Below are positions 55,353 through 64,000 of a DNA stretch of 64,000 nucleotides, in pieces (position 1 is the first letter of the stretch; the number at the start of each line of letters is the position of its first letter). A program made the position numbers and the translations under genes. The notes beneath the pieces are model-generated. The model was not told where the DNA came from. It saw nothing but the letters and a program-made list of their open reading frames with translations, and did not search any database. The DNA comes from Candidatus Thorarchaeota archaeon (GTDB taxonomy: Archaea; Asgardarchaeota; Thorarchaeia; Thorarchaeales; Thorarchaeaceae), in contig CAVSBO010000007.1 of the NCBI GenBank assembly GCA_963726195.1, positions 62,533 to 126,532 on the forward strand. Reading direction: 5' to 3'.

Positions 55353-57496
55353 ATGACTGGCGTCAACAGCTCCGTCCTCAACTACGAGGATCTTGTCATG
55401 AGAGAGAGGAAGCTGCCAAAGGTCCGCACTACGAGCGGAACAATGGAGCCATTTGACGCAGAGCGAATCATAGACAGCCTCATGCTTGAGGCAAAGTTGG
55501 ACCGCGCCACCGCGGAATCAGTGGCGATAACGGTCATGGATAGGATTGTAGCATCTGGAATCAAGTTCCTTTCCGGACCACTGATTCGAGAGATGTGCGA
55601 CTGTGTTCTTACAGAAATGGGCCTAGAAAAGGAGCGCATGCGATACACTCGTGTCGGTATCCCAATGTACGATCTGGACCAGCTTATCCAGAATCCCGCC
55701 GGACATACTTCGAATGCGAACCTCATGAGAAATCCCTGAGACCATTGCCAAACTGGTTCACGATCAGGTCATGGAGCAGCACACGTACCTCACAATACCG
55801 AGCCACCTTGCTGACGCGCACTTGTCTGGTGATATCTACATCAAAGACCGAGAGTACTTCTCGACTCGAGACTACTGTGCGACATGGGATCTTCGTCAGG
55901 TTCTGCTTCTTGGGATTGCCCCTGACGGTCTCGGTGGGATGCATTCAAGTGCCGCAGGGCCTGCAAAGCATCTTGCAGTCGCAGTGAATCACTCTGCTAT
56001 CTGGTTGGCTGCAGCTCAGAGCTCGTTTGCAGGTGGACAGGGCTTCTTCTACTTCAACACGTTCCTTGCTCCCTTCATGAGGGGTAGGACTCCTGATGAA
56101 ATCAAGCAGGCTGCACAACAGCTGATCTTCACACTTACTCAGCAATACGTCGCACGCGGAGGCCAGGTGATATTCTCAAGCGTTGACCTAACGCCCGGCA
56201 TTCCGAAGATAATGAGAGACGTGCCTGCGGTGTTGCCGGGCGGAGAAACGGGTGCGCTGACTTACGGAGACTTCGAGCCCGAGGCTAAGCAGTTCTTCAA
56301 CGCATTCATGCAAGTCATGATCAAGGGCGATGCAAAGGGAAAGGGCTTCAGCTTTCCGAAGCCGAACATCGTTTTGCGCGAAGAATTCATGAAGCCTGAA
56401 TTCGATGACTCGTGGCAACTTGTCGCAGAGCTGACGGCGAAGCATGGCAGTCCCTACTTCGAGAACTACCTGAACTGGAGATCGTCGATTGAGGCAGGGT
56501 GCAGCAGCTGCTGTTCGCATCTCTGGACCGCAAGCACGAAGGAAGAGCTGGAAGAGTTCCTTACAGGGAACATGGTATTCGGTGCATCACAGATGGTTAC
56601 TCCGAACTTCGGACGCGCCGCATGGCTGGGACGATCGGACGAGGACAAGTTCTTCGCAAGAGTGGACCAGTGTCTAGACCTGTGCAAGGAAGTCATTCTT
56701 GAAAAGAAGCGGCTCATGGACAGGTTGATTGCGAGTGGGAGCGTTCCGTTCTATACACAGCCGAAGCCCAATGGGCAGCCGCTAATTGAGATGAGCAAGC
56801 GTCAGTTCCTGATTGGGACAGTTGGATTTGAAGAGGCCTCAGAAATCACGACTGGCTTCCATCTGCATGACCGAGAGGGTTCACGATTCGCCATCAAGGT
56901 GCTCAAGCACATGAGGAAGCGTGCGGATGAGTTCCAGAACGAGACCGGTCTGCACTTCGGAGTCACGCGTACGCCTGCCGAGACCGCTGCAGGCAAGCTC
57001 GCGATGAAAGATGCGAAGGCCTACCCCGGAATTAGGAAGTACCTGAAGGGAGTTGAGCCGAACCTGTACTACACGAACAGCACAACGCTGTACGTGGGCG
57101 CGGACATTCCTCTGACTGAGCGGATTAAGAAAGAGGGCATGTTCCACCCGTATCTTGATGGCGGTGCACTCACGCACGTTTTCTTGGGCGAGGCGAATCC
57201 TGATCCGGATGCGCTATGGGCGTTCAACATGAAGATTGCCAAAGACACGTTGAACGCTTACTGGAGCTTCACTAAAGATGTCGCTAATCTGTCCGCGCTG
57301 TTCTTACCAGAGCGGAATCGATTGGAGAACGACGAAGTTCAATTCCATCGAGGAACTCGACAAGATTGTGTGCCCGAAGTGCGGGTTTGTGGGTGTGGAA
57401 GTTATTTCCAGGATCACCGGGTACCAACAGTCGTTATCAAGCTGGCAGCCTTCAAAGAAGCAGGAGTTCATCGACAGGCATAGGTACTCTCTCTAG
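55353..57496 (+). CDS. nrdD: Anaerobic class III ribonucleoside-triphosphate reductase with ATP cone, 2 frameshifts
   Basis: ATP cone, AHLSGDIYIKD, TPAET, YYTNS, GGALTH, CPRC...CPKCG, SRITGY glycyl-radical motif. Confidence 0.92.
57456..57480 (+). repeat. nrdD 3'-end repeat, copy 1 (inside the intact gene)
   Basis: AGAAGCAGGAGTTCATCGACAGGCA. Confidence 0.9.
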
Positions 57497-57676
57497 GTGC
57501 AATGCTGTTCTGATATCACAGAATCAGTGGCTCAAGTTTTTTTCATAGTACTCGCGAAACCGAGCGACTCTCAGCTGCACCCTATGCAGTACACCAGTCT
57601 GCCAGCGGCTCTGGAGGCCAGAGCCATAATACCTTGTTCCTTATACAGAGACGGCCTGCTGCAGCATTGGTGGAGG

Positions 57677-58405
57677 ATGCCTTTGAGTCTGCTGCCGTCT
57701 GCAGATGAAATAGTGGCAGAAGTGGTCCGGAAGTTCAAGGACCTCGATGTGAACGGAATCCACGCAAAGACGTATGATAGCATGCTCAGGCACCGCAACA
57801 CATACTATGCTCGCAGAGTCGACGAGCTTCTAGGGAAGTTGAAGATTGATGACGCTGCGCGCCAGGTCGTCCGCAATGCTCTCCTTTCTCCGTTGACCAT
57901 TGGAGACGTTCAGTACAGCAACTTTATGGAGGAAGTGGCTCGGCGCATGAGCCAGAGCATGCAGCCGATTAGTGGGAGAGTCGCGGAAGTCTGTGCCGAG
58001 ATTGAACTGAAGCGCGCGGGCCTGAAGCGTGATGTTGACTATGGCATACGCGAGAAGCGAACTGACATCACGATCTATCACCCCCAGAAAGAGGCAGGAG
58101 CCAAAACACATCGCGTGGAAGTGAAGAACATGAAGCTCCGCGAAAGGGCCGCGCGCGGACTTGTATTCGATGGAGATTCTCTCTTTGGTTTCTTCGATGA
58201 TCCCGGAGAATTCACGAGCGGTAACCTCACGGTGATTGAAAAAACATGCATAGCCACTGGCGGGTACGTCTATATTCCTCCGCCAACTCTGGAACTAGTC
58301 CGTCAGGGGCATCTTGTTCCTGTGGACAGCAGGCTGAGACCAAATACTCGATTTGCTCATGACATGACCGAGTTTGCTCATGAGGGCAGGATTTCACCTA
58401 CTTAG
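57677..58405 (+). CDS. Putative type II restriction endonuclease (PD-(D/E)xK)
   Basis: SGRVAE, TDITI...VEVK, LRER; GGAGG RBS; converges on a DNA methyltransferase. Confidence 0.65.
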   Translation: MPLSLLPSADEIVAEVVRKFKDLDVNGIHAKTYDSMLRHRNTYYARRVDELLGKLKIDDAARQVVRNALLSPLTIGDVQYSNFMEEVARRMSQSMQPISGRVAEVCAEIELKRAGLKRDVDYGIREKRTDITIYHPQKEAGAKTHRVEVKNMKLRERAARGLVFDGDSLFGFFDDPGEFTSGNLTVIEKTCIATGGYVYIPPPTLELVRQGHLVPVDSRLRPNTRFAHDMTEFAHEGRISPT

Positions 58406-59286
58406 GCGGTCTCCAAAAGTCAAGGATGTATTCGAAGGTTGTGCCAAGAGTGATATAGTTGTTAGGCCAGCCGAAAATTCCGACCTTGTTCACAAGGTTT
58501 CTGCGGTCCCAGATTATTATGTTCCGCAGTTCATATCCTGCTTTCTCGAGAGCGTCGACTACGTAAATGTGGACCTTCACTCGATGGTTCTCCCACCAGA
58601 GGTCCGTTATATTGATTACACAGTGAGCCTTTGGTCTCATCAGCGGAAGAATCCCTGCGTAGATTTCTCCGAGAGTCTTAGAGTACGCCGCTGGGTCCAT
58701 CGTTCCAAGATCCATCGGATCGTTAGAGTACTGCTGAATTGTAAGATAATGTTCATTGTTTCTGAGGTCTCCTCGTATGCTCTTGTTCTTTCTTCTTCGA
58801 TTCAGCATGTTCGCATACGGAGGAGAGGTGACGGACAGTGAGACAGTTTCCTCCTCAAAGTATTCGGGTATGTTATGCGCTTCATCGCAGATGGCCATTT
58901 GCCTGGATCCGCCTTCCAAACGAGTCTGACCTAGTCTTGAGTTGCAGAGGTCGATGTACTCCTTCTTCAAATCAAAGCCGACAGCATTTCGATCCAAGTC
59001 TTCCGCAGCCACAAGAGTTGTGCCACTGCCCACGAATGGATCGAGAACTAGTTCTCCTTTGTGAGTGAATAGGCTGATACATCGGGCAGGCAGAGCGATT
59101 GGGAAGACGAGCTGGATGCACGTTCTTGTCTCGGAGGTCTCTCTTTTCGTAGAAGAACTCCCATATGGCGACCTGGCTCTGTATCCACTCTTTGGCGGTC
59201 ATGCAATTGATGTGGTTCTCGGGACAATTGCATGTCTTTGTGTGACCGATTTCAAGAGGCTTCGTTGTTTTCTCAGTGGACTGCAT
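58398..59286 (-). CDS. Amino DNA methyltransferase (probably N4-cytosine), frameshift near 59105
   Basis: HPA.FP, DPFVGSGTT, TSPPY, NIIIWD. Confidence 0.9.
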
Positions 59287-59399
59287 CGCTCTCGACTAAG
59301 GATAATGGTCAATCCTTTAAAGCCTATACATGGATGACGCCGAAGGATGTGACCCGGTTCTGCTGATAGGCCGGAGATGATGAGAAAGGAGGGCGGCCA

Positions 59400-60112
59400 G
59401 TGGTTGGAGCTCCGGTTTTGACGCTTGAATTGCTGGAGGAGCGGCTCGGAGAGCTGAAGGGACAGCGGTTTGAGCTGGTCCGAGGCGGCGACGGGGCCGC
59501 AGGCCATACCCTTGAGCATCTATTGGGCTTGAAAGAGAACAACCTCTCTGTACCAGACTGGGGTGATTTCGAACTCAAGACATGTCAGAGGGAGTCAAGA
59601 ACTCCGGTGACGCTCGTCTCCAAGGCGCCGAGAAGGATAGGCAATATCAGTAGACAAGAGTTCATTGCCAAGCACGGTTACAGCGATGAGATGGGACGAA
59701 CCGGGTTGAATTGCACCGTGAGTGCATCATGCGTCAACAGCAGAGGCTGGCAGCTGCGGGTTTCTCCAGACAACAAGCGCATCGACATTGAGCACATGGG
59801 CGACGGTGGTAGCGTTTCAGGATTTGCCATCATTGGCAAACACTCTTGCGAAGAAGGTCCACAACATGGTTCTGGTGATGGCGGACATTCTACCTGATGA
59901 GTCCGGTGCACATGTGACGCTACGTGGAGGCCTTCCTCCTCGCGGGCATCAATAATGACAACATCGCCTCAATGTTCAGACAGGGTCACATCACGTTCGA
60001 CTGGCGAATGTACTTGAGGTCTGACGGGTCAGTGCGCGACCATGGACCTGTATACCGCATCGCCCAATCCCACCTGCCCCAACTCTACTCCATAAGAAAG
60101 AGAGTGCTCTGA
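59400..60112 (+). CDS. MvaI/BcnI family restriction endonuclease, 2 frameshifts (error or pseudogene)
   Basis: GAAGHTLEHLLGLKENN...PDWGDFELK; C-terminal RDHG. Confidence 0.8.
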
Positions 60113-60153
60113 GTCCTGTGGGAATGCAGACCATCAGGACGTCTCATACACGA

Positions 60154-60227
60154 CAAGGCTCTTCCGACTGGGTCGCCCTGAGAAGCAGGAGTTCATCGAC
60201 AGACACCGGTACGACCTGAGTTGGTGA
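60154..60227 (+). repeat. nrdD 3'-end relic, copy 2
   Basis: 60181-60202 is identical to 57456-57477 (22 nt); encodes KQEFIDRHRYDLSW* versus nrdD KQEFIDRHRYSL*. Confidence 0.9.
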
Positions 60228-60234
60228 AGCCGAA

Positions 60235-60612
60235 TCATGCGAAGAGCCAGACTCGCTCAATCCACTCAACTGGGCTCAGATAGATACTTGCATATACAGT
60301 GCCTCTTACGATAATCACATCGCCAATACCAAGACCACAGGTATTGCAGGGCAGAGTAATATTGCCCGTTCCGTCGGTCACCGTAATATCGCCGTCACAT
60401 CCTGTCCCCCACCAGACCACGTAGCCGCCTACTATCCGTCCCTTTATTGTGACGCTCTCTCCCACCGCCACCGTTCCAGCGTTGATGTCGCCAATCGGTG
60501 TGATTCCCAAGGGATTATCATGAATGTACGTGCCTACAGACGCAGTGAGCGCAATGACGACTATGACAAGAGCCACGAGCCTTCTCCTACTCAAGGGAAT
60601 CGTCCCCCGCAT
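60235..60612 (-). CDS. Small membrane-anchored OB-fold-like protein
   Basis: N-terminal hydrophobic helix, VTIKGRI, VTDGTGNI, GDVIIVRGTV. Confidence 0.6.
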   Translation of the reverse strand: MRGTIPLSRRRLVALVIVVIALTASVGTYIHDNPLGITPIGDINAGTVAVGESVTIKGRIVGGYVVWWGTGCDGDITVTDGTGNITLPCNTCGLGIGDVIIVRGTVYASIYLSPVEWIERVWLFA

Positions 60613-60703
60613 TCGCGTCTACTCCGCTTGGCTATTCGCATTGTATGCTAAAGAGGGTTTGCAGAGTCTCCATCGGGAAACAGCCCTCAGAATCTTCCTA
60701 TGA

Positions 60704-61306
60704 CTAGTCGCCAGATCCGATCTTCAAGTCCAACCACTTCGTATGAAACTCTCTTGCTCCACGTCTACTGAGAATCCCGTACTCCTTGAGCAGGCATGCT
60801 CTGTTGTGCCTGATGATGTCCTCGACCTTTCCAGATTCGAAGGCTCTCACGCAGAGTCTGCCTTCGCCATTGAAAGGGTCATCATATGTCGGCAGTCCCA
60901 GTTCCCTCACTACTGCCTCTTTCTTTTCTGCTTTGGTCATCTGAATTTCTTTGTCGATGTCCAGTATCTCTCGACCAGAGTTCCAGTAGTAGCAGCCCTC
61001 TTCGAATGCCTTATTGAAAGCATGCAGCGGACTAGTCGCCTTGGACATGAACATGATCGCGCTTTTCTGAAATGCTGCGAGAGAATCGATCCCTTTGGCA
61101 GCGAAAACCTGTAGTTTGCCGCCCGCAAGAATCCCGACCGCCGTGATTCTCATGTCGCGATAGCGTGCCAGGTAGTCTTCCTTGTCCTGACAGTAGGGCG
61201 CTTCACCGAACTGGCCAACGGTTTCGATATCGATAATCGTGCCTTTGAAATCGCCTTCCACCGTTTCTTCATGCTGGATGTAGTGTTTAAGCACCCTGTA
61301 TGGCAA
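60704..61306 (-). CDS. RNase H-like / DnaQ-type 3'-5' exonuclease domain protein
   Basis: IIDIETVG, AFNKAFE, HNRACL. Confidence 0.65.
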   Translation of the reverse strand: MPYRVLKHYIQHEETVEGDFKGTIIDIETVGQFGEAPYCQDKEDYLARYRDMRITAVGILAGGKLQVFAAKGIDSLAAFQKSAIMFMSKATSPLHAFNKAFEEGCYYWNSGREILDIDKEIQMTKAEKKEAVVRELGLPTYDDPFNGEGRLCVRAFESGKVEDIIRHNRACLLKEYGILSRRGAREFHTKWLDLKIGSGD

Positions 61307-61352
61307 CGAGGAACCCCCAATGAAGAAAGGGTCGCTCGGCCATATCTCTTTT

Positions 61353-61427
61353 GGCCTTCAATAGGCATCAGGCTCCTGACGGCCCTCCATGCGGCAGGAG
61401 TTCATCGACAGGCACAGGAACCAGCTT
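61353..61427 (+). repeat. nrdD 3'-end relic, copy 3
   Basis: 61394-61414 is identical to 57460-57480 (21 nt); in-register GLQ*ASGS*RPSMRQEFIDRHRNQL versus GYQQSLSSWQPSKKQEFIDRHRYSL. Confidence 0.9.
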
Positions 61428-61592
61428 CGGTCAGTCCCCGGCTTCTTGGGAATCCATGAATGCATCTAGTGTTGTTTGAGGTGACCTTGGACTCCTAAGT
61501 CCATCCAGTTCCTGTTGATACGCTCTACTCTTGACATGCGATTGAGTTTTATAGAGCCTCCACTGATAGAGGCTGTTTGTGGGCAATTCACA

Positions 61593-63089
61593 GTGGTAGA
61601 ACTGAGCTTCTTTGGCGGAGTCGGCGAGATAGGTGGCAACAAGATACTCCTTCAGGATGGAAAGACTCGCGTCTTCTTGGACTTCGGACTTAGCTTCGGT
61701 CTGCAACAAACCTACTATGACGCATACCTTCAGCCTCGACCATTTGGGACAATCGATGAATACGTGGCATTTGGCCTGCTACCTAGAATAAAGGGGCTCT
61801 ATCGGGAGGACCACCTAGCGCACACTTCTCCAAAACACGAGTTACTAGATTCCAAGAAAGCCGCCGAGGCCGTGTTGATAAGCCATGCACACATGGATCA
61901 CGTTGGGTTGATTCCGTACCTGCGACCTGACATCCAACTAGTCGGTTCCGGCACTACACACAACATCCTGTCCTACCTGCAGGATACGACTAACGGTGAT
62001 GCTCAGGATTTCCGTGATTGGTACCCGTCTTTCAGGCTCATCTCGATGAAACGAGGAGGGGGCATGAAGCGGGCTACCAGCGCGGACTTGGAGGCCGAGA
62101 AGAAGACCCGCGAGTATGTCACTCTGGAGAAGGGACGACCGCATCAGCTGGGTGATATCGAGGTCGCGATGTATCCAGTGGACCACAGTCTGCCGGGCTC
62201 AGATGCGTATGTCATCACAACTAGTTCGGGCAGTATAGCGTATACGGGAGACCTAAGATTCCATGGATACAACTCAGTCACGACTAGAGAGTTCGCCAAG
62301 ACTCTTGAGGGCGCGGACATCAAGGTTCTTCTATGTGAAGGCACGCGTGCAAGCGACAAACCGGGTTTCACTGAGGAGTCACTTGAGAATGAACTCACAC
62401 GGGTCTTTGGTGAAACGAAGAAGCTCATACTAGTGAACTACTCGGCGCGTGATACAGGCCGAATTCTTACGCTCTCAAAGGCTGCGACTGCTTGCGGACG
62501 GAGATTGCTGATCAATCCCAATCAGGCCTACTACCTCAAGGTCCTGCGTGACGGAGGTGAGAAGGCTCTCCCTGCTGAGAATGACGTGGACATCCTGTTG
62601 CCGAGAAAGGGTTGGGGTGTCTGGGGCAACTCTGATTATGACGAGAAGAACCAGAAGGAGGACTACACCGGTAGCTACCCAAAGGCTGTGAGAGAATATA
62701 TGTTTCAGCAGTCAGCCTTGGTGACTCCCGAGGATGTTGCAGACGCACAGACCGACTATGTGGTCACATGCAGCTTCTACGAGCTCAACCTGCTTCATGA
62801 CTTGAAGCCTGAAGAGGGTAGTCGCTTCATCTGGTCCCAATCGGAGCCATATGACGAGGAAACTGTCATCGACTTCAATCGGGTCAAGAACTGGCTCACT
62901 CACTTTGGACTGGGAGAACCTCATCAGTTGCATTGCTCAGGTCACATGTGTGGCGAAGAGATTGAGCAGCTCATAAAGAGCACCAATCCCGAAATAGTTG
63001 TGCCAATCCACACTCTGGAGCCGGAGCTCTTCAAGAAGTGGCACAAGGATGTGAGAGTCATCCAGCGGAATGGAGTGTTGCGAATCTAG
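61593..63089 (+). CDS. MBL / beta-CASP (RNase J-like) nuclease
   Basis: GGVGEIGGN, SHAHMDH, DHS, YTGDLRFHG, HCSGH, VPIHT. Confidence 0.85.
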   Translation: MVELSFFGGVGEIGGNKILLQDGKTRVFLDFGLSFGLQQTYYDAYLQPRPFGTIDEYVAFGLLPRIKGLYREDHLAHTSPKHELLDSKKAAEAVLISHAHMDHVGLIPYLRPDIQLVGSGTTHNILSYLQDTTNGDAQDFRDWYPSFRLISMKRGGGMKRATSADLEAEKKTREYVTLEKGRPHQLGDIEVAMYPVDHSLPGSDAYVITTSSGSIAYTGDLRFHGYNSVTTREFAKTLEGADIKVLLCEGTRASDKPGFTEESLENELTRVFGETKKLILVNYSARDTGRILTLSKAATACGRRLLINPNQAYYLKVLRDGGEKALPAENDVDILLPRKGWGVWGNSDYDEKNQKEDYTGSYPKAVREYMFQQSALVTPEDVADAQTDYVVTCSFYELNLLHDLKPEEGSRFIWSQSEPYDEETVIDFNRVKNWLTHFGLGEPHQLHCSGHMCGEEIEQLIKSTNPEIVVPIHTLEPELFKKWHKDVRVIQRNGVLRI

Positions 63090-63113
63090 TGGAAATGCTG
63101 GAGGGGCTATCCA

Positions 63114-64000
63114 ATGAACAAACAGGCCTACATCACGCTAATGGGCAGAAGTGGGTGGGCGGTCCTGAACTCGTTTCATGCCTCTGTCATCGAAACCGAC
63201 TATCGACCTCAAGAGATTCATGTCCTCTGTGAGTCCCAATTCTCTGATAATGTTCGGCCAGTGATGAAGGGCATTGAGATCATTCAGAGTTCCTATTCCA
63301 CGCCTAGCGTCCACGTTGTCAAAATACCGGACTGGGATGCCCGTGCCACGGGAACGACTGCCCTAAGCCTTGTTCAGCAGCTCAGGAGAGATGGATTCGA
63401 AGTCGCACTTGACATCACAGGCGGCAGAAAGGCTCCCGTGGCAGGCTCTCTGCTGGCACTGAAGAACGAGAGCCTTAGGCATCTGTTCTACCTCGGCATA
63501 GAAACCACACAGGGAGCGGCGAAACCGTACCTTCTGATTCCGAAGAGAAAACAGAGGCTGTTTGACCTCACTACGGGAGAAGTCCAGACTGAGCAGCCGG
63601 TTTTCGACCAAGCGAACGCAGATACCGATCTGGTCCTGACAAGAGAGTGCATGATGATCCTGCTCAATCAAGCTTACGCACGGGGCGAGAGAATACTGGT
63701 AAGGGCTCCTCTGTTGGGAGTGGACATACTCGAAGTCAATCCTCTTGCTGCGAAGGTCACATTGAAGACAGATGCCGACGACTATGCGCAGAGGCGCAAG
63801 GAAAGTGAGTTCGAGGGTTCAGATCATCCCACCTATGCCGACCTGAAAAGGTGCCTGTGTTATTGTGGAATCTTGAGCTTCGAGAACGCTGACGAGCTTG
63901 TGACTCTCCTGAAGAACGATATCAGCAAGGATTACTATGAACAGCCGGGAATGCGACGAAATGCCCTAGCACTGGACTCAAACATGTTCTACAGTGGATT
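63114..64000 (+). CDS. CARF-domain protein with probable C-terminal PIN domain; runs off the window and is absent from the ORF track
   Basis: Open frame from ATG 63114 with GGAGGGG RBS: AYITLMGRS, ALDITGGRKA, LFYL, and ALDSNMFY at the edge. Confidence 0.75.
   Translation, partial: MNKQAYITLMGRSGWAVLNSFHASVIETDYRPQEIHVLCESQFSDNVRPVMKGIEIIQSSYSTPSVHVVKIPDWDARATGTTALSLVQQLRRDGFEVALDITGGRKAPVAGSLLALKNESLRHLFYLGIETTQGAAKPYLLIPKRKQRLFDLTTGEVQTEQPVFDQANADTDLVLTRECMMILLNQAYARGERILVRAPLLGVDILEVNPLAAKVTLKTDADDYAQRRKESEFEGSDHPTYADLKRCLCYCGILSFENADELVTLLKNDISKDYYEQPGMRRNALALDSNMFYSG

Follow-up and report, generated by a model that had tools for sequence, protein, structure and literature searches.

Three copies of the nrdD tail in the window

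The DNA considered here is the last 64 kb of a contig of Candidatus Thorarchaeota archaeon (GenBank assembly GCA_963726195.1, contig CAVSBO010000007.1, here C7), a stretch of 64,000 nucleotides that we call the window, and in particular the gene nrdD, which encodes the class III ribonucleotide reductase, and the genes that follow it. The source metagenome-assembled genome (MAG; labeled G000) comprises 2.9 Mb in 19 contigs and is 88.9% complete; G-numbers denote genomes of the family and L-numbers fetched loci. Behind nrdD lie a restriction-modification unit (cassette 1), a smaller block (cassette 2) and an outermost block that opens with a beta-CASP nuclease gene, and between these blocks stand relic copies of the end of nrdD itself (Table 1). 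A preceding sequence-only reading had counted on more DNA past 64 kb, where in fact nothing follows, position 64000 being the terminus of C7.

Exact copies of the 18-nt core GCAGGAGTTCATCGACAG stand at 57460, 60185 and 61394, always on the + strand, and exact identity extends to 22 nt between the gene and copy 2 (57456-57477 = 60181-60202) and to 21 nt between the gene and copy 3 (57460-57480 = 61394-61414), in agreement with the coordinates, orientation and match lengths first given. None of 100 shuffles of the window contains a core match, and a search of the 2.9-Mb genome returned no further copy at up to two mismatches. Likewise, these three are the sole sites of the genome picked up by a profile of 93 Thorarchaeota tails, with E values of 1e-17 (copy 1), 4e-8 and 1e-6.

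Copy 1 closes the NrdD frame (...SRITGYQQSLSSWQPSKKQEFIDRHRYSL, stop at 57494-57496; asterisks mark stops). Copy 2 reads EKQEFIDRHRYDLSW, with a decayed left part and a right part equal to QEFIDRHRYDLSW*, and ends in the stop of its own that had been attributed to it. Copy 3 reads GLQ*ASGS*RPSMRQEFIDRHRNQL; again as described, its register holds as far back as the glycyl-radical Gly codon, and two stops fall within that stretch. The claim that the relics keep the NrdD peptide in different codons was right for copy 2, in which RHRY is encoded by AGA CAC CGG TAC as against AGG CAT AGG TAC in nrdD, and wrong for copy 3, which reads RHRN; the right part of copy 3 (GGCACAG) resembles the nrdD tail of G003, a genome of the same genus. 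Both relics are intergenic and each divides gene blocks, as the sequence-only reading had it. There is no fourth tail copy ahead of the contig end, which cuts the CARF-PIN gene.

Table 1. Coordinates of nrdD, its tail copies, the genes between them and the second displaced tail of the genome (window positions unless a locus is named)
Feature	Position	Strand	Remarks
nrdD, class III ribonucleotide reductase, ATP-cone to glycyl-radical tail	55353..57496	+	from translations; read in three frames
Tail copy 1, working nrdD end, glycyl-radical Gly codon to stop	57419..57496	+	core 57460-57477; tail profile E 1e-17
Cassette 1, restriction-modification unit	57478..60184		three genes
EcoRII-C-like endonuclease candidate, cassette 1	about 57677-58405	+	~240 aa, not 302
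Type II DNA methyltransferase, cassette 1	58398-59286	-	broken by extra base near 59109
Truncated MvaI/BcnI-type endonuclease, cassette 1	59400-59897	+	
Relic tail copy 2	60147..60227	+	core 60185-60202; own TGA at 60225-60227
Cassette 2	60203..61393		two genes
125-aa protein without known family, cassette 2	60235-60612	-	
200-aa RNase H-fold exonuclease candidate, cassette 2	60704-61306	-	
Relic tail copy 3	61353..61427	+	core 61394-61411; in register to Gly codon; two stops
Beta-CASP metallo-beta-lactamase nuclease, first gene of outermost block	61515..63089	+	Pfam Lactamase_B_2, RMMBL; RNase J / beta-CASP models
CARF-PIN effector gene, cut by contig end	63114..64000	+	PADLOC CARF, CARF_PIN models
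C13 tail repeats	L106:7088-7187 and L106:3256-3355		contig C13, about 118.3-122.2 kb

The anchor gene is read in three frames in the window. Its ATP-cone (55353-55739), C-terminal zinc ribbon (CPxC...CPKC) and glycyl-radical motif RITGY are all there, but the frame is broken twice; residues 1-504 are 90% identical to the intact 713-aa gene of G003, and alignment with the latter places +1 insertions near 55737 and 57285. A third single extra base, at 59109, breaks the methyltransferase of cassette 1, and the three insertions fall inside 3.4 kb. All three extra bases (55737, 57285/57287 and 59109) are missing from related peat and wetland metagenome contigs, a comparison that draws on four runs and is uninformative for stretches without cover there; no public sequencing run contains more than 12% of sampled words from the source sequence. 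Because open reading frames (ORFs) of at least 250 aa cover 64% of G000, being long and intact outside the nrdD region, yet of the three other genomes in the genus two (85 and 93% complete) yielded no nrdD, the frameshifts in nrdD and the methyltransferase gene could reflect either an error in the local consensus, at a contig end that is heterogeneous, or genuine decay of the two genes. The two frameshifts and the two congeners in which the gene was not found also make it doubtful that nrdD is essential here, as had been asserted.

Arrays of tail-bounded cassettes in the family

Comparison of the regions downstream of nrdD in relatives, which had been proposed as a check, revealed relic NrdD tails that bound variable cassettes in 21 of 48 fetched loci with a complete gene end. 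The relics are always co-oriented and spaced 0.4-4.7 kb apart, and the cassettes measure 0.5-4.7 kb, with a tail copy between each. A degenerate tail pattern has matches in 47 of the 86 family genomes, with up to eight on one contig, as against none for the reversed control pattern. The largest array, in G059, has seven tail copies behind nrdD over 9.7 kb. Across 44 relics, conservation begins some 75 nt ahead of the stop, at the Tyr codon that comes after the radical Gly, and does not reach past the stop codon; it is codon-periodic and peaks at AATCCTGCCAAGAAGCAGGAGTTCCTTGA.AGACACAGGTAC. Many contigs end inside or just past nrdD, as a repeat-rich and variable locus would lead one to expect.

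Individual cassettes recur in different places. A 963-bp cassette, 87-89% identical and of the same length in three genera, takes first place in L063 but second place in both L043 and L064, and a luciferase-like unit occupies array position 1, 2 or 3 in six genomes. In the same genome pairs, cargo is 82-90% identical as against 76-80% for nrdD, indicating transfer between lineages. Empty sites, which the sequence-only reading had suggested looking for, are present in two relatives, in which a conserved HhH-GPD glycosylase gene follows nrdD after 46 nt (L071) and 179 nt (L088); in L072 the same gene lies 83 nt past the last relic, beyond 6.9 kb of cassettes. G000 has no close homologue of the genes for the HhH-GPD glycosylase and an adenosine deaminase, which flank the arrays distally in some members of the family.

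The 54 cassette proteins form 38 cargo clusters, and the cassettes, mostly single-gene, have their ORFs on both strands in roughly equal numbers. Across the family, cargo includes luciferase-like oxidoreductases, TPR proteins, a NERD nuclease, MoxR with vWA, NosD-like beta-helix proteins, an ABC transporter, a PLP enzyme, GNAT proteins, a ParA-like ATPase, zinc-ribbon membrane proteins and many unknowns. The first description of the window as a defence island suits its restriction-modification genes, beta-CASP nuclease and CARF-PIN effector, but not the membrane, metabolic and TPR cargo found elsewhere; since the cargo of the family is very diverse, the system is not a defence island as such. 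The first cassette of G059 (L097:16327-17717) encodes a ParA/MinD-like ATPase and a small unknown gene that together resemble a plasmid partition pair, which hints that some cassettes are of episome origin.

Judged by these comparisons and by the joints described below, nrdD ends in a recombination site of 72-78 nt, which runs from the glycyl-radical Gly/Tyr codons through the stop, and the genes downstream are organized as discrete cassettes that are gained, lost, reordered and passed between genera.

Positions of the joints

Alignment of cassette families in different contexts separates the parts of the tails that travel with the cargo from those that do not. A cassette owns the right part of its upstream tail (from about ..GAY AGG CAT.. 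through the stop), together with its downstream tail's left part (as far as ..AATCCTGC.AAGAA), but not the flanking tail halves. The aligned joints therefore define a travelling unit that consists of a tail 3' part, the cargo and a tail 5' part and is exchanged within AAGAARCAGGAGTTYNTNGAY. From this structure it follows that exchange also takes place inside the core, and not solely by displacement of whole tails, and that every insertion adjoining nrdD re-supplies the final codons of the gene (..RHRYxL*) and leaves the older tail further out.

Whole tails are displaced as well. In L066, the body of nrdD is 94% identical to that of the sister L068; over the last 90 nt, by contrast, identity is 96% with L057 and no more than 73% with L068, and the 20 nt before the tail are L057-like too. 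The whole L068-type tail (31/36 and 19/21 nt) forms the outermost relic of L066, behind two cassettes, and one L066 cassette is preceded by a complete L062-type tail (35/36 nt). This pattern is what homologous replacement would leave if the crossover on the left lay within nrdD and the one on the right in a tail, and it is not what a site-specific crossover at a fixed point would produce.

Relics have their left ends mostly at -64 to -80, others at -45 to -56 and one at -131, and some begin exactly at the KK codons. A relic at L082:1903-2037 comprises 45 codons and includes the second CPKC zinc-ribbon motif, and another in G015 (L033, reverse strand, 1489-1692 after re-orientation) comprises 68 codons at 44% identity; given such over-long relics, the left limit of the duplicated segment is not absolute.

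The restriction-modification unit of the window has a counterpart in L107, a JGI metagenome contig, which carries the endonuclease and methyltransferase of cassette 1 at 90% amino acid identity. There the unit comes after a different cargo ORF and a relic that starts exactly at AG/AAGCAGGAGTTCATCGACAGGCAC (a slash marks the joint), and the relic abuts a stop codon at AG/AAGCAGG; homology with the window begins at the left edge of the core, the joint being AG/AAGCAGGAG. Contigs from two studies link the nrdD tail (57486/57487) to 60295 or 60728 and omit cassette 1, the intervening letters not being known. Near-identical pieces of cassette 1, cassette 2 and the relic 2 joint are found in contigs of other studies, those of cassette 2 in wetland metagenomes. 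The proposal that DNA is inserted serially at the 3' end of nrdD, displacing earlier tails, is thus borne out by the relics of the family, the shared cassettes, the empty sites, the L066/L068 exchange and L107.

The core of the consensus tail lies within a short inverted repeat, TCCTGC-N6-GCAGGA. When ten strands of tails were folded as DNA, they formed no attC-like hairpin, with z-scores from -1.8 to +1.0 and no structure that was stable or shared.

A second displaced tail in the genome

All long ORFs of G000 were scanned against downstream copies of their own last 93 nt. The scan recovered nrdD and seven other matches, of which one, on contig C13, is a genuine displaced tail and three are full-length paralogues. 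The C13 gene belongs to the AP-endonuclease-2 family (xylose-isomerase-like), and its last 93 nt plus 7 nt are repeated 3.8 kb downstream at 90% identity. The repeats enclose five ORFs, namely a helix-turn-helix protein, a secreted 431-aa protein, a TnpB fragment and two unknowns, with no integrase among them. The 431-aa protein was considered as a mobilizing enzyme and rejected, as it is a secreted, anchored protein.

Search for a mobilizing enzyme

The sequence-only reading had described an integron-like array with no recombinase in the window, and this extends to the rest of the material: there is none on C7 or on any fetched array. Tyrosine recombinases (PF00589) match somewhere in 29 of 86 Thorarchaeia genomes, the other 57 being without, and never on an array contig of the 86, C7 included. 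PF00589 and the resolvase family PF00239 are both missing from G062, G061 and G008, which are 93-95% complete and have 8, 5 and 3 tail copies. More broadly, several Thorarchaeia genomes that are 93-97% complete have no Pfam tyrosine-recombinase match. G000 itself encodes one tyrosine recombinase (on C17, its only PF00589 match) and one resolvase (on C3), both far from nrdD; when these were compared by phmmer with all ORFs of 58 loci, only a methyltransferase paralogue matched. A tail-like nhmmer match 25 nt after the C17 tyrosine recombinase gene (E 4.3) proved on inspection to be due to chance.

The cassettes were equally barren. Pfam recognizes no recombinase or homing endonuclease (LAGLIDADG, HNH, GIY-YIG) among about 60 cassette proteins, in a search that a divergent nuclease may have escaped, the family-less proteins not having been folded; the only nucleases in cassettes are one NERD protein and the restriction enzymes of the window. 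No integrase or integrase fragment is present in about 58 cassettes, and none of the 57 nrdD loci taken from public genomes contains a full-size element. Small zinc-ribbon proteins recur in first position and were considered as the mobilizing enzyme; they are membrane proteins and were rejected.

A match of the tail motif in an 85-kb viral contig (IMGVR_UViG_3300028907_000003 of IMG/VR) was considered as an attP site and likewise rejected, since this sole match is the end of the virus's own NrdD. The NrdD-like ORF (L105:2782-7443) is 1553 aa long, a size that suggests inteins, and its tail (..SRITGYLEPISQWNAAKKQEFFDRHRYGEKDVRG*) closely resembles the Thorarchaeota tail.

Models of cassette gain

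Our preferred explanation, which we hold to be about as likely right as wrong, is that the tail copies serve as portable homology arms, through which tail-flanked DNA is taken in, shuffled and lost by the homologous recombination or break repair of the host. Tail-flanked DNA from another array, either linear or looped out as a circle, would enter by host homologous recombination or break repair, with one crossover in nrdD or a tail and the second likewise in a tail; two tails recombining with each other would delete or circularize cassettes, and a dedicated integrase would not be needed. The window would then record three events: copy 3, which is G003-like, would be the oldest tail, and cassette 2 and afterwards the restriction-modification cassette 1 would have been added towards nrdD. 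The L066 exchange, the variable left ends of relics, the hairpin-less tails and the lack of a Pfam-recognized recombinase in the scanned cassettes and in G062, G061 and G008 lean towards homology-driven exchange over an integrase, and we count the tail displacement on C13 in its favor too, as a sign that the process is general beyond nrdD in the same genome.

Several points weigh against exchange by homology. Most relics have the same left end, at the Tyr codon, and the 38 unrelated cargo families are neatly tail-bounded, both of which a defined att site predicts. For homologous recombination to be efficient, a tail of some 75 nt at 75-95% identity is short, and homology alone does not account for new cargo entering between tails; indeed, the origin of the tail flanks around a new gene is accounted for by no model, homology included. 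The argument from variable crossovers comes mainly from one well-resolved genome trio (L066/L068/L057), and wherever joints were placed by alignment they coincide with the edges of the identical core, which may be compatible with a fixed crossover inside the core. Finally, Pfam could miss a divergent archaeal recombinase, and MAGs are incomplete.

These points lead to the strongest rival, an integron-like or CIME-like system (for CIMEs, see below) in which a site-specific recombinase, either of an unrecognized family or supplied in trans by a virus or plasmid, would insert circular cassettes carrying a 75-nt tail-like site by a fixed crossover in the AAGAAGCAGGAGTT core. We regard this as possible, though rather doubtful. 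It would make sense of the uniform limits of the site, from Tyr codon to stop, of the compact, mostly single-gene cassettes with their highly diverse cargo, and of cassette families that are bounded in the core, and the relics that start at the KK codons, the abutting relic of L107 and the inverted repeat over the core would also suit it. The recombinase, however, is nowhere in or beside any array, and the three array-rich genomes without both Pfam families are nearly complete. The tails have no stable hairpin, the cassettes occur in both orientations, the tract imported into L066 reaches past the site into the body of nrdD, and the C13 gene of the same genome has a similar tail displacement.

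Inteins and homing endonucleases classically target genes for ribonucleotide reductases. A third explanation is an invasion of the kind known for mobile endonuclease ORFs (mORFs), in which a selfish nuclease would cut the conserved glycyl-radical coding sequence or the tail, repair would bring a replacement tail and strand the old one, and other cassettes would hitch-hike. Such repair of a tail break from any tail-flanked template would yield the observed units, and it would produce the whole-tail displacement of L066/L068, with the old tail outermost, as well as the clustering of relic left ends just past the most conserved codons (RITG/Y). The nrdD frames of G004 (on C20) and G005 (on C63), 1246-1247 aa long with a match split at residue 87, suggest an intein in the N-terminal part of NrdD. 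Yet none of the roughly 60 cassette proteins matches LAGLIDADG, HNH or GIY-YIG, and the recurrent zinc-ribbon proteins are, as said, membrane proteins. The first ORF behind nrdD in the window, which seems to abut the nrdD stop, has its true start some 180 nt beyond that point; it resembles a restriction enzyme of the EcoRII type and is paired with a methyltransferase. We therefore consider homing unlikely.

Still less likely, in our estimate, are decayed classical elements, that is, viruses or plasmids with an nrdD-specific integrase that integrated in tandem and were later reduced by deletions to a few cargo genes and att sites, leaving something akin to micro-CIMEs. Tandem accretion at gene 3' ends with integrase-less remnants is well documented in streptococci (PMC7563491), the ParA-like partition ATPase in the first cassette of G059 hints at an episome, and cassette 1 of the window contains broken and truncated genes. 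Against this, about 58 cassettes contain no integrase or fragment of one, the 57 public loci no full-size element, and the viral-contig scan for the tail motif yielded only the virus's own nrdD; intact single genes of conserved length, such as the 963-bp unit in three genera, are unlike the remnants of random deletion.

That the copies are chimera joints assembled from a mixed population is hardly credible: although the array lies at a contig end, the genome has strain-variant contigs (C9 vs C10, C2 vs C4) and three single-base insertions fall inside 3.4 kb, an assembly artefact is ruled out in practice by the same architecture in dozens of independent assemblies from different groups, by the many substitutions between relics and gene, and by the near-identical pieces of cassettes 1 and 2 and of the relic 2 joint in contigs of other studies.

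Relation to known systems

Integrons have been reported from Archaea, with an enrichment in Asgard lineages (Ghaly et al. 2022, PMC9668308), and clusters of attC sites without intI are known as CALINs. The nrdD arrays resemble integrons in their compact, mostly single-gene and diverse cassettes, each bounded by a repeated site, in their fixed anchor, and in the shuffling of cassettes and their exchange between lineages, and they resemble CALINs in that many arrays have no integrase nearby. They differ in that the site is a copy of the last 25 codons of a protein gene and not an attC hairpin, in that the anchor is a gene end that must stay coding, and in that the cassettes lie on both strands and are not co-oriented from a common promoter. 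There is also no IntI, and several near-complete genomes have no tyrosine recombinase recognized by Pfam.

In staphylococci, staphylococcal cassette chromosome (SCC) elements stack at the 3' end of rlmH. Arrays that grow by accretion at gene 3' ends are formed in streptococci by integrative and conjugative elements (ICEs), by elements that are integrative and mobilizable (IMEs), and by cis-mobilizable elements (CIMEs), for example at fda or tRNA-Lys, as outlined in PMC7563491, which cites Bellanger et al. 2011. Both kinds share with the nrdD arrays a conserved gene 3' end that is restored, tandem stacking and a direct repeat of the gene end at each joint, and integrase-less members of the ICE/IME/CIME arrays are moved by others. 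The latter arrays have a tyrosine or serine integrase from one member and consist of decayed elements of several kilobases, whereas here single genes in units of 0.5-2 kb are stacked and about 58 cassettes contain no integrase. Since IntI, attC and a cognate integrase are all lacking, we class the nrdD array neither as an integron nor as an accretion array.

Islands of Prochlorococcus reportedly grow by repeated insertion at the end of a tRNA gene, the elements encoding their own recombinases. The likeness to the nrdD arrays lies in growth at one conserved gene end and in the partial gene copies between cargo blocks; the difference lies in the tRNA target and own recombinases there, as opposed to a protein-coding tail and a recombinase that was not found here. 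Tycheposons and these tRNA-relic genomic islands are the subject of bioRxiv 10.1101/2020.12.28.424599.

In the handling of the tail itself there is a likeness to another kind of element, in that the incoming DNA brings a replacement C-terminal end and strands the original downstream (window copies 1-3; L066/L068). The elements in question are mORFs from the mitochondria of fungi, and also homing endonuclease genes of the free-standing kind, which bring along a second copy of the host gene's C-terminus. Those are endonuclease genes, usually with one insertion, whereas here Pfam recognizes no homing endonuclease family and ordinary accessory cargo is stacked in up to seven units and reshuffled.

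In the literature on integrases and integrons of Asgard archaea and Thorarchaeota, and on cassettes at nrdD, we found no description of such arrays, and a paper on mobile elements of Atabeyarchaeia mentions neither nrdD nor cassettes; we thus found no paper that describes integron-like gene capture on nrdD tails without a visible integrase. We tentatively propose, with less than even confidence, that Asgard archaea have a gene-capture platform that works without a dedicated integrase of its own, in which the end codons of conserved genes (nrdD, and the AP-endonuclease-family gene on C13) would be homology arms or the sites of an undescribed enzyme. If so, single genes would be stacked, shuffled and passed between genera by a functional analogue of the integron of independent origin. 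Asgard archaea are the closest known relatives of eukaryotes, and to our knowledge little is known of gene exchange in them. An array present in about half of a family, with dozens of unrelated accessory genes, exchange across genera and no visible integrase, would be a main route of accessory-gene flow in the lineage and would offer a new answer to how integron-like arrays work. In practical terms, tail repeats break assemblies at nrdD, and annotation pipelines will miss the relics.

Neighboring genes and further observations

Upstream of nrdD the window encodes a thioredoxin(-like) protein, ThyA (thymidylate synthase), a hexapeptide transferase and an EF-2-like protein. At the other end of the window, the outermost block has a partial counterpart at the end of contig C3 (L004:19012-20000, compared with window 63034-63998), in which the end of the beta-CASP gene and the first 23 CARF-PIN codons are repeated. 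The repeat amounts to 212 nt at 90% DNA identity (window 63034-63244) and is followed by a 49%-identical CARF paralogue, near which lie a DndB-like gene and an HD-domain gene; there is no tail relic at the C3 end. The C3 end could be either a second copy of the module or another haplotype of the window locus, and this duplication is probably the reason why both contigs stop there.

An 18-nt exact piece of the nrdD tail (TCGACAGGCATAGGTACT) occurs at L005:4801-4818 on contig C9, 60 nt from its end, and a cupin gene lies just downstream of it. C9, a strain variant that matches C10:38799-45002 at 98-99.8% identity, begins to diverge from C10 right before the tail piece. Against the tail profile the piece has an E value of 1.3 and so lacks significance; it may mark the distal joint of an array in part of the population, or be due to chance.

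Elsewhere on C3 (C3:854263-855675 of G000), a 252-aa methyltransferase akin to the enzyme of cassette 1 (phmmer E 8.5e-69) adjoins the only resolvase-family gene of the genome, and the pair may constitute a small mobile methyltransferase unit.

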